Shown here: positions 756-13,452 of the stretch, piece by piece | Numbering within the stretch: position 1 is the first letter of the stretch | Layout: each line of letters opens with the position of its first letter | Program-made: the position numbers and the translations under genes | DNA from: Methanooceanicella nereidis | Lineage (GTDB): Archaea; Halobacteriota; Methanocellia; Methanocellales; Methanocellaceae | Reading direction: 5' to 3' | Assembly: GCF_021023085.1 (NCBI RefSeq) | Contig: NZ_PGCK01000001.1 | Span: 361,851-385,850, forward strand | Length of the DNA stretch: 24,000 nt | Notes under the pieces: generated by a model | Database searches by the model: none | Told to the model about the DNA's origin: nothing | What the model saw: the letters and a program-made list of their open reading frames with translations, nothing else

Positions 756-870
756 TTAACCACGAAGCGCACGAAGGCGAGCAAAGAACACAAAGGACTC
801 TTTTAGAAAATTAGTATATATATTAAAAAAATTAGTGTACCTTATTCGCCTTCGTGCGCTTCGTGGTTAA
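756..870. repeat. Perfect 25-bp inverted repeat flanking an AT-rich 65-bp core; single-unit member of the CACRAAG repeat family seen at 9720-10546
   Basis: ttaaccacgaagcgcacgaaggcga (756-780) is the exact reverse complement of tcgccttcgtgcgcttcgtggttaa (846-870). The core contains aaaattagt twice. The element lies between two convergent 3' ends (histone and panE). Confidence 0.85.
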
Positions 871-5395: not shown

Positions 5396-5525
5396 ATTAC
5401 CAAGATAAGTTACACCCTCATTGCAATAAAGCGTTACGTTTGCGCGATAATTCCATAATGACCGCTTTTTTACCGAATATTTAGAGATCTACCGCTTAGT
5501 ATTAAGCAAGCATTTAAAATTAAAG

Positions 5526-6752
5526 TTGTATTATAGAATTGATAGTATATATTGGGGGCGAAACTTGTTTTTTAAGTTAAAAAAGTTGAAAACGATCGCA
5601 ATGATCATAGTCATTTCGATCGTATTACTATCCTTGATCAGTATCATACTATTAGGTGCGGCTGATGATGAGGCAACTGGAAGGGTCAGAATAACTGTGG
5701 AAGACCAGAATGGAAATCCCCTTTCAGGCGCTAACATATATATTTATAATGGCTCTCCCTCCCCCGTGCGTACGGATACTACTGGTGCTAACGGAGTATC
5801 GACAATAAAAGACTTGCCTGTAGGAAGTTATAGTGTAACGGCTGAATATAAAGGCAGCCAAAACTCAGATTCATTCAGCATTACCGCAGCGAGTCTAAGC
5901 GTTATCACAATAGTTATCCCGGTGTATCCGACACCTACACCGACCCCCGCGCCGACCCTTATCCCGTCCCCGTCACCGTCCCCGTCGCCAACTCCGGCGC
6001 CAACTTCTACACCCACCGCAACACCAACTCCATCCCCCACGATATCCCCATCAAAACCGCCTTCCTATATTCCTCCCCCGGTAACTCAGTATACCGCCGG
6101 TACAGGCAAGTACCCCAGGGCAGTCCTGAATAGCAGCTGGCTGAGGGTGGGTAAGAACGAGATCGCCGTACTGGACGGCAGCGCATCTTACGATCCTGAC
6201 GGGGCCATTTTCAAATACCTCTGGGATCTCGGGGACGGCGAGACTGCCGAAGGGCAGATCGTGGAGCATACTTATTCACATGCCGGAGAGTACTTTGCGA
6301 AATTAACGGTCGTAGACAATAGTAACCTGAGATCAAGCGCGACAAGAAAAGTGATAGTCTCCACTGAAAAGCCTGTGTCTGTGCCGGGAGATCGTCAAAT
6401 AGTGACCATCGGAGAAAAAGCGGTGTTTGACGGCTCGGAATCATTCGATAGTGACGGCAGTATCGTAAAGTATGAATGGTCATTTGGCGACGGAACCTAT
6501 GCGGAAGGTACTGTCGCTGAGCATATGTTTGACTGGATCGATACGTATAAGGTATCTTTGAAGGTCACGGATGATGACGGTGTGAGCGACACCAGATGGA
6601 CCGTCGTCGAGGTCGTGGCTGAGGAAAAGGATGATGAGGATGCCGCCGGGGATGATAAAAACGTTAACAGCAAGTTCATAATATTCTCGGGAGCCGGCGT
6701 GGTCCTTGGCATCGCCGGTCTCTTCCTCCTGGTCCGTAGAAAGGATAAGTAG
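5526..6752 (+). CDS. Secreted or membrane-anchored surface protein: signal/TM, CarboxypepD_reg-like domain, Pro/Thr/Ser linker, two PKD domains, C-terminal TM anchor
   Basis: The N-terminal hydrophobic helix is IAMIIVISIVLLSLISIILL. GRVRITVEDQNGNPLSGANIYI...GSYSVTAEYKG resembles a carboxypeptidase regulatory fold. The PT-rich linker spans about 5930-6060. Two PKD-like repeats are present (DGSASYDPDG...YLWDLGDG and DGSESFDSDG...YEWSFGDG). The C-terminus is hydrophobic then basic. The true start is more likely the ATG at 5601 than the TTG at 5526. Confidence 0.8.
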   Translation: MYYRIDSIYWGRNLFFKLKKLKTIAMIIVISIVLLSLISIILLGAADDEATGRVRITVEDQNGNPLSGANIYIYNGSPSPVRTDTTGANGVSTIKDLPVGSYSVTAEYKGSQNSDSFSITAASLSVITIVIPVYPTPTPTPAPTLIPSPSPSPSPTPAPTSTPTATPTPSPTISPSKPPSYIPPPVTQYTAGTGKYPRAVLNSSWLRVGKNEIAVLDGSASYDPDGAIFKYLWDLGDGETAEGQIVEHTYSHAGEYFAKLTVVDNSNLRSSATRKVIVSTEKPVSVPGDRQIVTIGEKAVFDGSESFDSDGSIVKYEWSFGDGTYAEGTVAEHMFDWIDTYKVSLKVTDDDGVSDTRWTVVEVVAEEKDDEDAAGDDKNVNSKFIIFSGAGVVLGIAGLFLLVRRKDK

Positions 6753-7878: not shown

Positions 7879-9086
7879 CTTCGGTATGCCTGTATTTCCA
7901 GGTGCATCAGCCTAACAGGCTAAAATGGTTCTTTCCGGGCATCGATAAGGTGAAAATGGACTATTTTAACGACAGGTTCAATGAAGAGGTCTTCAGGAAA
8001 GTCGCAAAGAAATGTTACTGGCCTGCCACAAAGACAATATTCCATCTATTAAAAAGACATGAAGGCAAATTTAAGGTCACTTATTCGCTGTCGGGCATCT
8101 TTCTCGACCAGTGTGAAAAATATGATCCGGAACTCATTGACCTTTTTAGAAAGCTGCTGGATACGGGGTGCGTGGAGTTCCTTGACGAGACGTATTACCA
8201 TTCTCTTGTAAGCCTTTTTGAAGATAAAAAAGAGTTCGTGGAACAGATCAAGATCCACAGGGAAGCAATGGAGTCCATATTCGGATACAGGCCCACGTCA
8301 TTCAGGAATACCGAACTGATATACAGTAATGAGATAGCGAGTACTGTCGATGGCCTGGGATATAAGTCCATATTGATGGAAGGGATCGAATCGGTCCTTG
8401 GCTGGAGGTCGCCGAATTATGTATACAGGGCAAAAAAAGGAGACATAAGGGTACTTGCGAGAAATTACCCCCTGAGCGACGATATCGCTTTCCGGTTCTC
8501 CGCAAACTGGTGGAACGAGTACCCGCTGACCGCGGATAAATGGGCAAAGTGGGCGAGAGCCAGCGGAGGGGATATAGTGAACATCTTTATGGACTATGAG
8601 ACATTCGGCGAGCACCAGTGGGAGGAGAGCGGCATATTCTGGTTCCTGAAAGCACTTCCTGACATGGTATTAAATGAAAAGATGCGCTTCGCGACCGTGA
8701 CCGAGAACAGTAAAAAGTACGGTCCGAAAGATATTATTGACGTGCCGGACGATCGCCCCGTATCCTGGGCCGACCTGGAGCGCGATACCAGCGCATGGCT
8801 GGGTAACGATATGCAGCGCCGGTGTTTCGAGGAAGGCATGCTTTTAGGCAATTATGTAAAGCTTACAGGGGACGCCAGAATGCTGGAGGCCTGGAGAAAC
8901 CTTCTCACTTCAGATAATATTTACTACATATGCACGAAATGGCTTGGCGACGGTGACGTCCACTCATATTTTAGCCATCACAGCTCCCCGTTTGACGCCG
9001 GCGTTAACTATGCCGCGATACTCAGCGATTTTAAAGGGCACATCTTTGAAAAGCTCAAAAAAAGTCCCGGCGGCCCTCTTCCATGA
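7875..9086 (+). CDS. Glycoside hydrolase family 57 (alpha-amylase type)
   Basis: The GH57 conserved regions are intact: VHQPNR, GCVEFL, FRNTELIY (Glu codon 8313-8315), MDYETFGEH and TSDNIYY. The TTG start at 7875 overlaps the upstream stop (cTTGA). Confidence 0.85.
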   Translation: MTSVCLYFQVHQPNRLKWFFPGIDKVKMDYFNDRFNEEVFRKVAKKCYWPATKTIFHLLKRHEGKFKVTYSLSGIFLDQCEKYDPELIDLFRKLLDTGCVEFLDETYYHSLVSLFEDKKEFVEQIKIHREAMESIFGYRPTSFRNTELIYSNEIASTVDGLGYKSILMEGIESVLGWRSPNYVYRAKKGDIRVLARNYPLSDDIAFRFSANWWNEYPLTADKWAKWARASGGDIVNIFMDYETFGEHQWEESGIFWFLKALPDMVLNEKMRFATVTENSKKYGPKDIIDVPDDRPVSWADLERDTSAWLGNDMQRRCFEEGMLLGNYVKLTGDARMLEAWRNLLTSDNIYYICTKWLGDGDVHSYFSHHSSPFDAGVNYAAILSDFKGHIFEKLKKSPGGPLP

Positions 9087-9582
9087 ACTTTTCAAAATAG
9101 ACCAGGTCCTTGAGGTCTTTTCTTGGCCTTTCTTCAGGTCTTTCGTCAGGATATCCCAGCGTCAGGCATGCCACTATTTTTCTGTCCTCCGGGATGTCCA
9201 GTATGGCCTTAATGAGGTCTTCGGTAAAATAGCCTATCCAGCATGACCCTACGCCGGAATCCCATGCTGTCAGCACCATATGCTCCATCGCCACTGACAG
9301 GTCCGTCACATACCATTTTTGTGACGGGTCGCCTACACCCACAATGAAAACGTTGCATTCTTCAACATACTTAGTATTGTTGCACGCGCTTGCCAGTGCT
9401 TTTTTAAGGTTTTTATTCCGTATGACGACAAGTGTCCACGGCTGCCTGCCCGATGCTGAAGGCGCCAGCCTTGCCGACTCCAGTATGCGCATCAGTATGT
9501 CATCAGGTATAGGGTCCGGCTTATATTTTCGAATGCTCCTTCGGGTCTTTATAGCCTCGAAAACGTCCATAAGAATGACCAT
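9055..9582 (-). CDS. Nitroreductase-family oxidoreductase (FMN-dependent)
   Basis: The N-terminus AIKTRRSIRKY...APSASGRQPW is the classic nitroreductase signature. The start is the ATG at 9582 or 9570. Its 3' end overlaps the GH57 3' end by 32 bp, convergently. Confidence 0.8.
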   Translation of the reverse strand: MVILMDVFEAIKTRRSIRKYKPDPIPDDILMRILESARLAPSASGRQPWTLVVIRNKNLKKALASACNNTKYVEECNVFIVGVGDPSQKWYVTDLSVAMEHMVLTAWDSGVGSCWIGYFTEDLIKAILDIPEDRKIVACLTLGYPDERPEERPRKDLKDLVYFEKFMEEGRRDFF

Positions 9583-9972
9583 TATAAATATAATTAATTA
9601 TGTATAAAATATCTCGTGTCGGGTTTATTATTTTAAAGGCTCGCACAAAAAAGCATATTACAGACACAAAGCACCAGTATCCGCTAAGGCCACACTACAA
9701 AGCGCAAAAAGGCGAATAAGGACCACTATTTTTCACCACGAAATCTTTGATGAGTGTGCCCCGCTCAGGTTTTAAGAATGAAAAAGTGTTGATAGTCCGC
9801 GGATCATAAAATTGTTTCTTGTGAATTCTTTAGTTTATGATCCTTGACATATAGTCGTACATGATCTTGACATCTGATGCTGTACGCGGGGTAATGCATT
9901 ACCCCGATGAACACCGGCAGGATCATAATCGGCAAGAAGTTTTTCATGGGAGTACACAAAGGCGACAAAGGT

Positions 9973-10178
9973 ACACAAGCTTAACCACAAAGGACACAAG
10001 GGCAACCAAGTAACACAAGCTTAACCACAAAGGACACAAGGGCAACCAAGTAACACAAGCTTAACCACAAAGGACACAAGGGCAACCAAGTAACACAAGC
10101 TTAACCACAAAGGACACAAGGGCAACCAAGGAACACAAGCTTAACCACAAAGGACACAAGGGCAACCAAGGAACACAA
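9973..10178. repeat. Left tandem array: five head-to-tail copies of a 40-bp unit (acacaagcttaaccacaaaggacacaagggcaaccaagta) plus a partial sixth
   Basis: Units start at 9973, 10013, 10053, 10093 and 10133. Units 1-3 are identical and units 4-5 differ by one base (ta to ga). No spacers separate them. The top strand is strongly A+C rich. Confidence 0.95.
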
Positions 10179-10306
10179 ATTTTTTTAAAAATATAAAATT
10201 TTAAAAGTTATCCAATAGTTCTGTAAATTAGACATGATGAATAATAAACACAGTTATGGATTATAAAATATGAAAAACACATACACCGTTTTAAAAAAAA
10301 TCCTTT

Positions 10307-10499
10307 GTGTTACTTGGTTACCTTCGTGTACTTTGTGGTTAAGCTAGTGTTACTTGGTTACCTTCGTGTACTTTGTGGTTAAGCTAGTGTTACTTGGTTA
10401 CCTTCGTGTACTTTGTGGTTAAGCTAGTGTTACTTGGTTACCTTCGTGTACTTTGTGGTTAAGCTAGTGTTACTTGGTTACCTTCGTGTACTTTGTGGT
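10307..10499. repeat. Right tandem array: five copies of a 40-bp unit (gtgttacttggttaccttcgtgtactttgtggttaagcta), inverted relative to the left array
   Basis: Units start at 10307, 10347, 10387, 10427 and 10467. Units 1-4 are identical. The reverse complement of this unit matches the left-array unit at 35 of 40 positions by my alignment. Confidence 0.95.
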
Positions 10500-10616
10500 G
10501 AGAAATAGTGGCCCTTGGTAGCCTTCGTAGTGAAAAATAGTGGACCCTAGAGCCCATAGAGCCCTGAGCAATGAAAAAGTCAATGGCAGATATCCGGGCA
10601 GTTTTTTATAACGGTG

Positions 10617-12965
10617 TCATCCCCGCAATAGTCTCATGCCGTTCAGAATGACCAGTATCGCGGCGCCGGTATCCGCGAACAGCGCCATCCATAAGTTTGC
10701 CATCCCGAATATGGCTAGAACTATGAAAGCCGCCTTTATTGTAACGGAGAATGCCACGTTCTGCTTAATGATTTTCATAGTCCTCTTACCGAGCCTGAAA
10801 ACGTAAGACAGCTTTGAAAGGTCATTGGACATAAGGGCAATGTCCGCTGTCTCTATCGCAGTGTCCGAGCCGGTGGCGCCCATGGCTATCCCCACGTCCG
10901 CCTCGGCAAGCGCAGGAGCGTCATTTACCCCGTCGCCGACCATGGCCACGCTGCCGTTCCGATCTTTCATCCTGCGGACCATGTCCACTTTATCGGCCGG
11001 TAAAAGCTCTGCGTGATAACCATCCACTCCGGCCATATTTGAGATCGCCTTTGCCGTGATAGTACTATCGCCGGTGAGCATGACTATCTCATCGATGCCG
11101 GCATCGTGCAGGCTCTTTATGGATGTGCTGCTACCGGGCCTTAATTTATCCATGATGCCCATTACTGCAATGATCCCTTCGGGACCGCCCAGTATCACCG
11201 GGATCTTACCATCTTCCTGAAGCTCCCTCAATTTCTCGCTCGCGTCGCCGGGCAACAGGTCGAACATCCTGTAGCTGCCTATACGGTACTCGTTCCCGTC
11301 CACCCTGGCCTTGATACCCATGCCGGTGATAGACTCGAAAGACGCGACCTTCATCAAGCCATTATCGCCATATGCCTTCATGATAGCGCCGGCCAGCGGA
11401 TGCTCGGAGCGGGATTCCAGCGATGCGGCTATTCTGAGTGCTTCTTCCTTTGTGACACCATTGAATGTGACCATATCCGTCACCTCGGGCTTTCCTTCGG
11501 TCAGGGTACCCGTCTTATCAAAAGCGAGAGCTTTGACCTTCGAGCATTCCTCAAGATACGACCCGCCTTTTATAAGGACGCCGTTCCGCGACGCGCTGCC
11601 GATCGCGGCGACTATGGATACTGGCGTGGATATCACCAGAGCGCATGGGCAGGATATGACAAGCAGTACCAGCGCCCTGTAAAACCACATGTCGAACGGC
11701 TGTCCCAGTATCAGCGGAGGCAGGGCTGCTGTCGCTATCGCTCCGCATATCACCAGAGGAGTGTAATATTTAGCGAACCTGTCCACGAATTCCTGCGCCG
11801 GGGCTTTACGGTTCTGGGCCTCCTCTACCATATGTATGATCTTTGACAGAGTATTATCCTCGAAGCGACCCGTCACCCTGACCTCGAGCGTTCCGCGTTC
11901 GTTTATGGTGCCGGCGAAGACCTCGCTTCCCGGAGACTTCATGACAGGTATGGATTCCCCGGTTATTGGCGCCTGGTTAACGGTACTGGCGCCTTCCGTG
12001 ACTATCCCGTCCATCGGGATACGCTCTCCCGGGCGTATGACGATTATGTCCTCCGGCTCGATGGCTTTAACAGGGACTCTTTTTTCTATCCCGTTACGTA
12101 TCACGGATGCATCGTCCGGTGACAGCGATATTAGAGATTTGATAGAGTTACGCGTTTTATCGAGAGTATATGATTGAAGCGAGTTCCCTACGGAGAATAA
12201 GAACACAACAGCTGCAGCCTCTTCCCATTGGCCTATCGCAATAGCGCCTAAGACCGCTATCGTCATGAGCATGTTCATGTCAGGCGTCAATGCCTTGAAA
12301 GAGTAGATGGCGCTGCGTGCGACATAAAATCCGCCCACAAGGATAGCTATGAGGTAAAACGCTGTAGAGATCTCGGGCGGGAACCCTAAGAACGGTGCTG
12401 TAAAGCCTGCGGCGAACCCTGAGCCGGATACTATCGTACTGATCGCTCTTTTATTCCTGCTCAGGAATGATGCCTTTGTCTTACCGTCGGTCAATACATT
12501 AAATGAGTATCCCATTCCGGATATCGCGTCGCTTATCTCTTCCCTTCTGCATGAATGCTTTACTGTAAGGACTGCCGTAGAAAAATTAAGGCTTGCTTTC
12601 AAGACGCCCTGCATGCCTGCGATATACTTTTCCAGCTTTTGGGCGCAATCGGCACAATCCAGCCCTTGTATCTCAAAGACGTCAGTGCGCTCGTTCTCAC
12701 AGGTGACACCGTAGCCTGACTCTTCGATCAATGATATGATCTTTCCTGTATCCAGAGTATGTTTTACTGTGAGCGTGCCGGTGCCGAAATTCAGGCTGGA
12801 GCTGATGATACCCGGAGTGGAGTTCAGATGTGACTCCAGTTTAGAGGCGCAATCGATGCAGTCAAGTCCTTCGACCCGTATCCTGTCAGTCTTTGCGGAA
12901 GATAACAGCATTGCATTACAACTGGCACACTCGCATGCATGGGAAGTATTTTTTGTCTCGCTCAT
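10617..12965 (-). CDS. Heavy-metal translocating P1B-type ATPase, Zn/Cd/Pb (P1B-2, ZntA/CadA-like), with two N-terminal HMA domains
   Basis: There are two GLDCxDCAxKLE HMA motifs plus an N-terminal CECASC. TM6 carries CPC (VISCPCALVISTP). The catalytic motifs are DKTGT, SEHPLA and GDGVNDAP. The last TM reads ADTGAAILVILNGMRLL (DxG), and the preceding TM has a Lys, which together fit the Zn/Cd/Pb subgroup rather than Cu. Confidence 0.9.
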   Translation of the reverse strand: MSETKNTSHACECASCNAMLLSSAKTDRIRVEGLDCIDCASKLESHLNSTPGIISSSLNFGTGTLTVKHTLDTGKIISLIEESGYGVTCENERTDVFEIQGLDCADCAQKLEKYIAGMQGVLKASLNFSTAVLTVKHSCRREEISDAISGMGYSFNVLTDGKTKASFLSRNKRAISTIVSGSGFAAGFTAPFLGFPPEISTAFYLIAILVGGFYVARSAIYSFKALTPDMNMLMTIAVLGAIAIGQWEEAAAVVFLFSVGNSLQSYTLDKTRNSIKSLISLSPDDASVIRNGIEKRVPVKAIEPEDIIVIRPGERIPMDGIVTEGASTVNQAPITGESIPVMKSPGSEVFAGTINERGTLEVRVTGRFEDNTLSKIIHMVEEAQNRKAPAQEFVDRFAKYYTPLVICGAIATAALPPLILGQPFDMWFYRALVLLVISCPCALVISTPVSIVAAIGSASRNGVLIKGGSYLEECSKVKALAFDKTGTLTEGKPEVTDMVTFNGVTKEEALRIAASLESRSEHPLAGAIMKAYGDNGLMKVASFESITGMGIKARVDGNEYRIGSYRMFDLLPGDASEKLRELQEDGKIPVILGGPEGIIAVMGIMDKLRPGSSTSIKSLHDAGIDEIVMLTGDSTITAKAISNMAGVDGYHAELLPADKVDMVRRMKDRNGSVAMVGDGVNDAPALAEADVGIAMGATGSDTAIETADIALMSNDLSKLSYVFRLGKRTMKIIKQNVAFSVTIKAAFIVLAIFGMANLWMALFADTGAAILVILNGMRLLRG

Positions 12966-13058
12966 GGAATGGTTCTCCGATCTTGAGTGCCCGGCCTGTA
13001 CAGGTTAAATCGTTCAGCACCCATGGTAGAGCCCGGGCTGGTACACACATAAATCATG

Positions 13059-13085
13059 TGAACATATGAATAATGGTTCATATGT
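13059..13085 (-). promoter_or_regulatory. Operator-like dyad between the AT-rich TATA region and the ATPase start codon
   Basis: acatatgaa (13062-13070) and ttcatatgt (13077-13085) are exact reverse complements separated by taatgg. There is also TGAAC (13059-13063) / GTTCA (13076-13080). TGAACA-type half sites recall ArsR/SmtB-family operators. Confidence 0.4.
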
Positions 13086-13185
13086 ATTTTTTGCTTAAAT
13101 ACTTTATTTATCTTAATAAAAAAAATTTTAATTTTTCAAGATATTTACAAAAAAATCTAATTTATGAAAATCCTGTGATACTATG

Positions 13186-13218
13186 CTGGCATACAGGATA
13201 ATTGGCCTGGCATACAGG
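13186..13218. repeat. 12-bp direct repeat ctggcatacagg, two copies 21 bp apart
   Basis: The copies lie at 13186-13197 and 13207-13218. They sit between the Cys mini-ORF stop and the ATPase promoter. Confidence 0.8.
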
Positions 13219-13222
13219 TATT

Positions 13223-13366
13223 CTAAGAATCCTGGCCTGCGCTTGCAAGAATATCATCGGACCCGTAAATACGATAGTATACGCTCCTGCATTCACAGCT
13301 GCAGAACCCTTCCAGAGCATCTCCATGCTCTTCGCTATATTTACGTTCACACATAATACAACGCAT
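13223..13366 (-). CDS. Small Cys-rich FCS-type zinc-ribbon / TRASH-like protein (47 aa), not in the supplied ORF track
   Basis: My translation of the minus strand from the ATG at 13366..13364 to the TAG at 13225..13223 gives MRCIMCERKYSEEHGDALEGFCSCECRSVYYRIYGSDDILASAGQDS. The pattern is CxxC-x15-FCSCEC. It lies directly upstream of the metal ATPase on the same strand. Confidence 0.45.
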   Translation of the reverse strand: MRCIMCERKYSEEHGDALEGFCSCECRSVYYRIYGSDDILASAGQDS

Positions 13367-13416
13367 AATCCAATCCCGGGATAACCTTTGCACTAAAACT
13401 ACTTAAGTTATTTGCT

Positions 13417-13445
13417 AAAAAGATTAAAAAAGCGAGACATCTCGC
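13417..13445 (-). terminator. Hairpin plus T-run downstream of the lipoprotein gene
   Basis: gcgaga/tctcgc (13432-13445) starts 7 nt after the stop at 13453. On the minus strand it is followed by ttttttaatcttttt. Confidence 0.4.
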
Positions 13446-13452
13446 AAGAAGA

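Follow-up and report, generated by a model that had tools for sequence, protein, structure and literature searches.

What is the large non-coding palindrome that a nitroreductase gene borders on one side and a heavy-metal P-type ATPase gene, with its 3′ end, on the other in the archaeon Methanooceanicella nereidis? The spacer between the two genes (1034 bp) occupies positions 9583-10616 of the window, i.e., the whole 24,000-nt stretch of contig NZ_PGCK01000001.1 that was analysed (positions 361,851 to 385,850 of the forward strand). An earlier note had described in this spacer two opposed arrays of five 40-bp repeats around an AT-rich core, and had offered three options without choosing among them: a replication origin, a plasmid iteron or centromere site, and a large palindrome resembling a MITE (miniature inverted-repeat transposable element). 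Our analysis favours the third option. The repeat arm of the palindrome recurs at 756-870 of the same window, in other Methanocellales, in published Methanocella satellites, and in bacteria (at least 120 loci) and viral contigs (33). On balance, we regard the palindrome as a non-coding, dispersed element of the MITE or repetitive extragenic palindrome/bacterial interspersed mosaic element (REP/BIME) type, present here in an overgrown copy, and as neither an origin nor a centromere.

The central part of the palindrome is organised as follows:

9951..9973, plus strand: degenerate part-unit ahead of the left array, GTACACAAAGGCGACAAAGGTA
9974..10173, plus strand: left array of five 40-bp units, CACAAGCTTAACCACAAAGGACACAAGGGCAACCAAGTAA; the last two units have GGAA for GTAA
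10174..10186, plus strand: left-arm end, CACAAA followed by T7 (10180-10186), a terminator-like oligo-T toward the core
10179..10306, no strand: core, 81% A+T; not conserved in the family, whose cores vary among members
10293..10309, minus strand: right-arm end, CACAAAGGA followed by T8 (10300 to 10293), toward the core
10300..10499, minus strand: right array with five inverted 40-bp units, CACTAGCTTAACCACAAAGTACACGAAGGTAACCAAGTAA, the innermost of them a variant

Tandem Repeats Finder detected the left array at 9954-10178 (period 40, 5.6 copies, 96% matches) and the right array at 10307-10499 (period 40, 4.8 copies, 100% matches). Placed in register, the two opposed 5 × 40-bp arrays of the earlier note were borne out at 9974-10173 and 10300-10499. 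The left-array units were identical save for one T/G position, and the innermost right unit ended in CACAAAGGAT in place of CACTAGCTTA. Left and right units were identical at 35 of 40 positions, in agreement with the five differences counted earlier, and the two arms paired as an inverted repeat of 203 nt with 86% complementarity and a 110-nt spacing. Because the units are identical within an array and five fixed differences separate the arrays, amplification or homogenisation evidently took place in each arm separately, and recently; the independent homogenisation proposed in the note thus stands. The shift in base composition was also confirmed, from 76% A+C in the left array through 81% A+T in the core to 71% G+T in the right array. 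As single-stranded DNA, region 9945-10505 folded at -188.9 kcal/mol (z = -25 relative to shuffled sequences). A 17-mer from the unit occurred 11 times in the window (0.05 expected), and the 22-mer TTAACCACRAAGNNCACRARGG had 11 exact matches (0 expected), 5 in the left array and 4 in the right. All arms on the left side pointed right, and all arms on the right side pointed left.

Sub-repeats within the unit were spaced 9-11 bp apart (autocorrelation at lags 9, 19, 21, and 31). The sub-repeats of about 10 bp noted earlier were present, but they do not recur strictly once per helical turn. No open reading frame (ORF) of at least 60 aa was found within 9608-10616, as expected from the earlier statement that no ORF explains the region. 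Mixed sub-repeat spacings of 9, 10, and 11 bp, together with the lack of an ORF over the region, led us to reject a coding repeat. A CRISPR array and the RNA repeats of a type III toxin-antitoxin system were also rejected; the units are contiguous, and no ORF follows them. TTAACCACA matches the DnaA-box consensus TTATCCACA at 8 of 9 positions; this likeness was set aside because archaea are not known to have DnaA and because the copies lie at gene 3′ ends. A resemblance of part of the unit to the 3′ region of 16S rRNA was judged a low-complexity coincidence.

The origin of the unit became apparent from a second locus. A search of the window for phased CAC-RR-AG nonamers (R, purine) located an element about 9 kb from the giant copy:

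756..870, no strand: unamplified family member, a 115-bp palindrome between convergent histone and ApbA genes

This element consists of a left arm TTAACCACGAAGCGCACGAAGGCGAGCAAAGAACACAAAGG, a 40-bp AT core, and an inverted arm; the plus strand of the core has a T4 run and the minus strand a T7 run (825-831). The 40-bp unit aligned end to end with the small-element arm, as TTAA CCACAAAG GACACAAGG GCAACCAAG TAACACAAG C. Because the alignment covers the full length of one arm, each array corresponds to one arm repeated five times. The arm plan is a TTAACCAC head followed by four CAC-RR-AG sub-repeats of 9-11 bp. The same equivalence of unit and arm was obtained when small-element arms, 40-mers, outer arms, and bacterial and phage arms were aligned together. 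These alignments show the 40-bp unit to be, at the level of sequence, one whole arm of a small palindromic element. The basic element is ~70-150 bp long, with two inverted arms of ~40 bp, each a (T-rich)TTAACCAC head with 3-4 sub-repeats, and a short variable core.

The outer parts of the palindrome proved to be related to the same arm. The features concerned are:

9686..9742, plus strand: outer-left degenerate arm, CCACACTACAAAG CGCAAAAAGG CGAATAAGG ACCAC, TATTTTT, and the head of a next arm, CACCACGAAA
9745..9822, plus strand: lodged non-repeat block, conserved with relative L001; C-box-like TGATGAG at 9748-9754
10492..10549, minus strand: outer-right degenerate arms with two CCACTATTT(T/C)TCAC heads, CCACTATTTTTCACTACGAAGGCTACCAAGGGCCACTATTTCTCACCACAAAG

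The outer inverted repeat of the earlier note was found as 26 nt with 88% complementarity (9717-9742 vs. 10524-10549), and a second outer pairing joined 9709-9742 to 10492-10525. The outer-left arm, which forms the left side of two inverted repeats (I9 and I11), aligned with the right arm of the small element (829-870) and was near-identical to it, including the T-run. Judged by these alignments, the outer repeats are further decayed arms of the same family. The repeat itself was thus confirmed; its interpretation as a separate bracket around the structure was not.

The stretch of about 210 bp that separates the outer-left arm from the left array is unmatched on the right. Block 9745-9822, within this stretch, matched 5808-5730 of L001 in a pairwise alignment with L001 5830-5690; L001 is a contig of uncultured Methanocellales whose nitroreductase is 67% identical to that of M. 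nereidis. The L001 counterpart has clear C, D′, C′, and D boxes, and the block is a candidate C/D box small RNA. Rfam gave no match in the block. In stretch 9800-9930, which also lacks a counterpart on the right, ATGATC(C)TTGACAT occurs twice (9837-9850 and 9861-9873), GATCATAA occurs at 9802-9809 and 9922-9929, and a GC hairpin, cggggtaatgcattaccccg, lies at 9877-9896.

We then compared the spacer with its counterparts on syntenic contigs of uncultured Methanocellales, which were reached through nitroreductase homologues. The flanking genes in M. nereidis are:

9055..9582, minus strand: nitroreductase gene, promoter side toward the palindrome; the protein is 100% identical to that of Methanocella sp. 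CWC-04 (= Methanooceanicella nereidis)
10617..12965, minus strand: heavy-metal P-type ATPase gene, 3′ end toward the palindrome, with its own T5 run 39 nt past the stop codon

The relatives, with nitroreductase identity and spacer, are:

L009 (closest): 71%; one arm, CGCACGAAG CGCACAAAGA AACACAAAGA CCACAAAGG, then CCTTTTTAAA, then the end of the contig
L001: 67%; spacer of 693 bp with three unit copies (two direct, one inverted), unit end CACAAAGG CCGCAAAGA AACACTAAG
L006/L007: 67%; spacer of 265 bp without arms
L005: 61%; spacer of 62 bp
L003/L004: 60%; spacer of 147 bp, in which four CAC(G/A)GAG nonamers and four inverted ones flank a small GC hairpin with T5

The element is thus present or absent at the orthologous site, and the spacer in Methanocellales ranges from 62 to 1034 bp. 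Family members were also found in other spacers (L003 6121-6223; L001 2050-2220). The purine flavour of the sub-repeats was specific to each Methanocellales genome and uniform over all of its copies. Gain, loss, and uniformity within genomes are consistent with a proliferating or concertedly evolving repeat family, and not with a fixed site such as an origin. The arms of L001 also carry a conserved outer module of ~45 nt with a TATA-like box, TTTATACCGGGTGGTTGTCCTTCTCGCACGTGGAGCAGAATGGCAACCGTTTTAG (2040-2100, 5590-5545, 5700-5655, 5400-5440), and may possibly be small transcription units. Contigs of the closest relatives end inside or beside arms (L008 1-151, L009 1-221, L163 1676-1706), so that the arm repeats appear to break metagenome assemblies; because contigs stop at the arms, amplified arrays are probably under-represented in metagenome-assembled genomes. 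A metagenome scan with the exact 40-mer gave no match, and a metagenome search with the nitroreductase relatives revealed no close relative. As a background control, 79 unrelated archaeal and bacterial loci from the nitroreductase search (343 kb) contained no such arrays.

These comparisons bear directly on the origin hypothesis. A chromosomal or integrated-plasmid replication origin would have inverted iterons resembling origin recognition boxes (ORB) on both sides of a DNA-unwinding element (DUE), and the 81% A+T core between inverted repeat arrays has this appearance. However, no gene for orc1/cdc6, Rep, ParA/B, or SegA/B was found in the 24-kb window by ORF translation and Pfam. The motif has a second copy at 756-870 and also occurs in bacteria and phages, which are not known to use Orc1/Cdc6. 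In some relatives the syntenic spacer is no longer than 62-147 bp, and that of L006 (265 bp) contains no arms. GC skew over the window followed gene orientation, with no special turn at the palindrome. An origin is disfavoured because orc1/cdc6 is absent, the spacer is short in relatives, and the motif is common to bacteria and phages; we consider it very improbable. The iteron or centromere option likewise lacks support: the palindrome has no neighbouring partition or replication gene, and its arrays are inverted, not direct repeats. For this window, the origin/centromere lead is thus probably a false one. Comparison with known sites of this kind leads the same way: the parC centromere of plasmid R1 (a promoter flanked by 2 × 5 iterons) and archaeal oriC (ORB around DUE) share with the palindrome only the superficial likeness of repeat blocks flanking an AT-rich centre. 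The repeats of parC are direct and lie beside parMR, and oriC lies beside orc1/cdc6 at a conserved position. The present arrays are inverted, have no par/orc genes nearby, and are not conserved in position in relatives.

Dispersed non-coding satellites with units of 31-37 nt, perfect copies within an array, and several loci have been described in M. conradii and M. arvoryzae (PMC6749651). The M. conradii family was named Fam_27_37_5 (Subirana and Messeguer 2019, PMC6749651). According to the supplement of that paper, the M. conradii arrays are TTCACCACGGAGGTTCACAGAGGTCACAGAGAGGATT ×18, CACAGAGGTCACAGAGGAATTTTACCACGGAGGTT ×4, and reversed CTCTGTGTCCTTTGTGGACCTCTGTGGTGAATATAAT ×7, and one M. arvoryzae array is AGAGGCACAGAGGTGCACAGAGAACTGGTAACCAC ×4 (PMC6749651). 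Comparison by eye showed that the published units have the same block order as the window units, with another purine flavour. Both are non-coding tandem arrays from the same archaeal order, with a 31-40-nt unit, near-perfect copies (here period 40, 96-100%, and no ORF of at least 60 aa), and a T-rich head, ACCAC, and then CAC-NN-AG sub-repeats. They differ in that the published satellites are given as single arrays, of CACAGAG or CACGGAG flavour (PMC6749651), and the opposed pair of arrays around an AT core, the link to a small palindrome, and the link to bacteria are absent from the paper (PMC6749651). By its sequence, the 2 × 5 palindrome is best described as the M. nereidis counterpart of these satellites; the opposed-array layout and the tie to a small palindrome are added here. 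The authors proposed the term "transposed satellites" and gave no function (PMC6749651); our results tie such satellites to a concrete small palindromic element. The M. conradii arrays of 4-18 copies indicate that array amplification is common in Methanocellales.

To follow the arm beyond this order, one genome per prokaryotic species was scanned with the 22-mer. At least 120 loci matched, all bacterial among the matches listed, against ~9 chance matches calculated for 596 Gb. Among these listed matches, 44 were from Acidobacteriota, 36 from Bacteroidota, 11 from Verrucomicrobiota and other members of the Planctomycetes-Verrucomicrobia-Chlamydiae group, 11 from Chloroflexota, 6 from Desulfobacterota, 2 each from Ignavibacteriota and Spirochaetota, 1 from Cyanobacteria, and 7 from other groups. 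The same pattern matched 33 viral contigs. Bacterial and viral matches had features beyond the search pattern: they continued into a third sub-repeat and often a fourth, favoured GA at the two free positions, and showed conservation that began sharply at TTAA. Throughout the family, CAC and AG are fixed and the two middle purines vary. About 45% of these arms had an inverted partner, forming palindromes of 57-275 bp, mostly 75-125 bp. A profile hidden Markov model built from 163 bacterial and viral arms only detected the M. nereidis units at E-values of 2e-7 to 1e-5 (left array ~1e-5, right array 2e-7) and nothing else in the window. Three Chitinophagaceae loci had C at an otherwise rare position, i.e., a private variant common to the copies of one genome. 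Rfam gave only sub-threshold chance matches for the bacterial members, a literature search by sequence strings found no relevant paper, and complete elements had no BLAST match among annotated plasmids and cultured phages. An array detector run with looser settings was too noisy and was not used. On a Flavihumibacter contig (L037), an inverted pair of Acido-Lenti-1 RNA matches (RF01687) at 5592-5636 and 5746-5790, just over the gathering score, is an unrelated palindromic repeat.

Bacterial and phage arms were intergenic, with 29 in convergent, 51 in tandem, and 10 in divergent contexts. A gene end on the same strand lay within 60 nt upstream of the TTAA in 45-50% of arms, compared with 8% of random positions, and in 13 of 83 single arms the open frame that ended at the TAA of the TTAA was at least 100 codons long. 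This position at stop codons fits insertion at TTAA that regenerates the stop; it fits equally well selection that spares harmless copies beside gene ends. Position and size also recall integron attC sites, and the unit junctions GCTTAAC and GTTAAGC match the consensus RYYYAAC and GTTRRRY. The arms would then be attC-like recombination sites; sizes of 57-150 bp, a place after ORFs, and the small accessory genes that some arms flank are in keeping with this. However, two extra consensus positions were satisfied in only 65% and 51% of the family, the flanking genes are conserved syntenic housekeeping genes rather than cassettes, and an integrase is lacking. Neither single arms nor arms built from tandem nonamers are a feature of attC. 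We give this explanation very little credence.

The reading of the palindrome as an overgrown MITE- or REP/BIME-type element would entail the following steps. The family would be selfish DNA with TTAA at its boundaries, spreading inside genomes and tolerated where it lies in 3′ intergenic DNA. Slippage during replication or unequal exchange between 40-bp units, as the simplest mechanism, would have amplified each arm in tandem to five copies, probably by the same process that gave the 4-18-copy satellites of M. conradii, and homogenisation would then have been confined to the array of each arm. Any local effect would at most be insulation, in which the inward T7 and T8 stop transcription arriving from either side before it reaches the nitroreductase promoter. 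Concerted change inside one arm is seen in a phage spacer: all three sub-repeats of one arm differ alike, CTTTGTG/CTTCGTG in L155 vs. CTCTGTG three times in L248, and the partner arm stays CACAAAG.

Several observations weigh against this reading. It leaves unexplained why two arrays that were homogenised separately both have five copies; chance, an old inverted duplication of the array followed by concerted evolution in each arm, or selection for a symmetric hairpin could account for this. Within M. nereidis, the family is known from two loci of one 24-kb window. TTAA, the candidate target-site duplication, was found on both sides in only about one third of complete elements. A search of ~150 loci, a limited sample, revealed no transposase between distant inverted arms, and the ORFs inside were ordinary (e.g., Dcm in L041). 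Among related phage contigs, a single intercistronic spacer held the palindrome in 10, measured 4 nt in one (L243), and had another insert in 3. Such presence or absence counts in favour of the reading, but the one empty site is too diverged to define junctions. When the ten palindromes were aligned, the variable purines were seen to give A-U to G-U changes in the mRNA-sense strand only (22 G-U vs. ~7 A-C), which suggests that an RNA hairpin is maintained in that lineage. Finally, the arm is near-identical across phyla and domains, which is unusual for MITEs and hints at functional constraint or a conserved reader. In a MITE census, ~98% of clusters were genus-specific at 95% identity (PMC11602168).

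A conserved reader would be expected if the element acted as a binding platform at the DNA level, with the phased CAC-RR-AG sub-repeats as sites for a sequence-specific protein, e.g., a chromatin factor, a regulator, a partition-like factor, or a domesticated transposase. The protein would coat both arms and make use of the AT core. The 9-11-bp spacing, the invariant CAC and AG with free middle purines, and conservation of the arm across phyla are consistent with such a role. Moreover, single arms are frequent (83 of 139), and arms can lack complementarity, as those of L010, L101, and L248 do, which suggests that the arm sequence is kept and not the hairpin alone. On the other hand, no candidate protein gene was linked to the element in the 24-kb window or in ~150 loci, the spacing is inconstant (9, 10, 11), the element is missing from the same spacer in some relatives, and no known single reader is common to Methanocellales, many bacterial phyla, and phages. 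We therefore consider a binding platform unlikely as the explanation of the palindrome.

The phage lineage with sense-strand G-U pairing points instead to a role in RNA. Transcribed arms would form a long hairpin or an A/C-rich repeat RNA, serving as an intercistronic or 3′ stabiliser, as a terminator, or as convergent small RNAs that end at T7/T8. Each arm, read inward, ends in T7 or T8, the outer module of L001 has a TATA-like box, and the bacterial copies, which lie directly after stop codons, fold at ~-0.44 kcal/mol per nt. However, 34 unrelated elements showed no significant strand asymmetry (delta-G p = 0.41; G-U 38 vs. A-C 25), the promoter of the arms is no more than putative, and Rfam gave no match. 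A T-run followed the hairpin in only about one third of bacterial copies, and a classical intrinsic terminator was rejected on this count. Oligo-T is an established archaeal terminator, and oligo-T runs were found past the stop codons of terminal genes throughout the window. A T5 run precedes each M. nereidis arm and should keep transcripts of adjacent genes from reading into it. The arrays are not needed to end the ATPase transcript because that gene has its own T5. An RNA-level element is, in our estimate, also an improbable explanation. The arm at 6290 of the reverse complement of L140 (minus strand) lies within a coding start and is translated as a lipoprotein-like signal-peptide N-terminus (MFNHEGHEGTRKGICCLLIVACC...), and in several phage contigs single arms 2-50 nt upstream of starts supply an AAGG(A) Shine-Dalgarno-like sequence.

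We compared the favoured element type with the described classes. A REP is itself palindromic, 20-40 bp long, with GTAG or CGTC at its head, and REPs are lineage-specific. Like the REP/BIME of enterobacteria, and BIME-2 clusters in particular, the present element is extragenic, lies mostly at gene 3′ ends, forms hairpins from inverted copies, can be amplified in tandem into clusters, and has species-specific variants at orthologous spacers. In contrast to REP, its arm is non-palindromic, is built of nonamer sub-repeats, and has the TTAACCAC head instead of GTAG/CGTC. With MITEs (Correia, ERIC, MITEEc1) it shares small size (below about 800 bp), lack of coding capacity, dispersed intergenic location, terminal inverted repeats, occurrence in phages, and presence or absence at orthologous sites. 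Unlike MITEs, it has an arm that is internally repetitive and conserved over phyla and domains, and no parent insertion sequence was found in ~150 loci.

A broader proposal, which we put forward only tentatively and think less likely than not, is that the CAC-RR-AG/TTAACCAC palindromes are one coherent and so far undescribed family of Methanocellales, at least nine bacterial phyla, and phages. Such a family would be kept by a reader, either a transposase acting on TTAA ends or a DNA/RNA-binding factor, and would seed the satellite arrays of Methanocellales. Near-identity of the arm over archaea, bacterial phyla, and phages had no prior description or explanation in the literature searched. Such breadth is unexpected for MITE/REP-type repeats and would point to frequent cross-domain transfer or a conserved molecular reader.

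The remainder of the window is ordinary archaeal chromosome by ORF translation and Pfam. The neighbours include a histone, ApbA, a TbsP-like regulator, HflX, ThiI, two GH57 proteins, SRP54, HgcA/HgcB-like proteins, Pus10, and KsgA. Rfam gave nothing in the window at the gathering threshold and nothing up to E 10 in 9400-10800, and a tRNA scan gave no match. An ArsR-type helix-turn-helix gene lies immediately upstream of the ATPase gene in relatives L001, L003, and L006. In the corresponding part of the window (12966-13452), the sole ORF (13162-13350) had no Pfam match; the ArsR-type regulator of the ATPase gene may be missing or diverged in M. nereidis. Farther along, a minus-strand gene at 17046-17954 encodes an HgcA-like protein with an NVWCAAGK motif, a CdhD domain, and C-terminal membrane helices. 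It is overlapped by a gene on the same strand (16726-17055) for an HgcB-like ferredoxin with two [4Fe-4S] clusters, and the two genes (16726-17954) look like a mercury-methylation pair.

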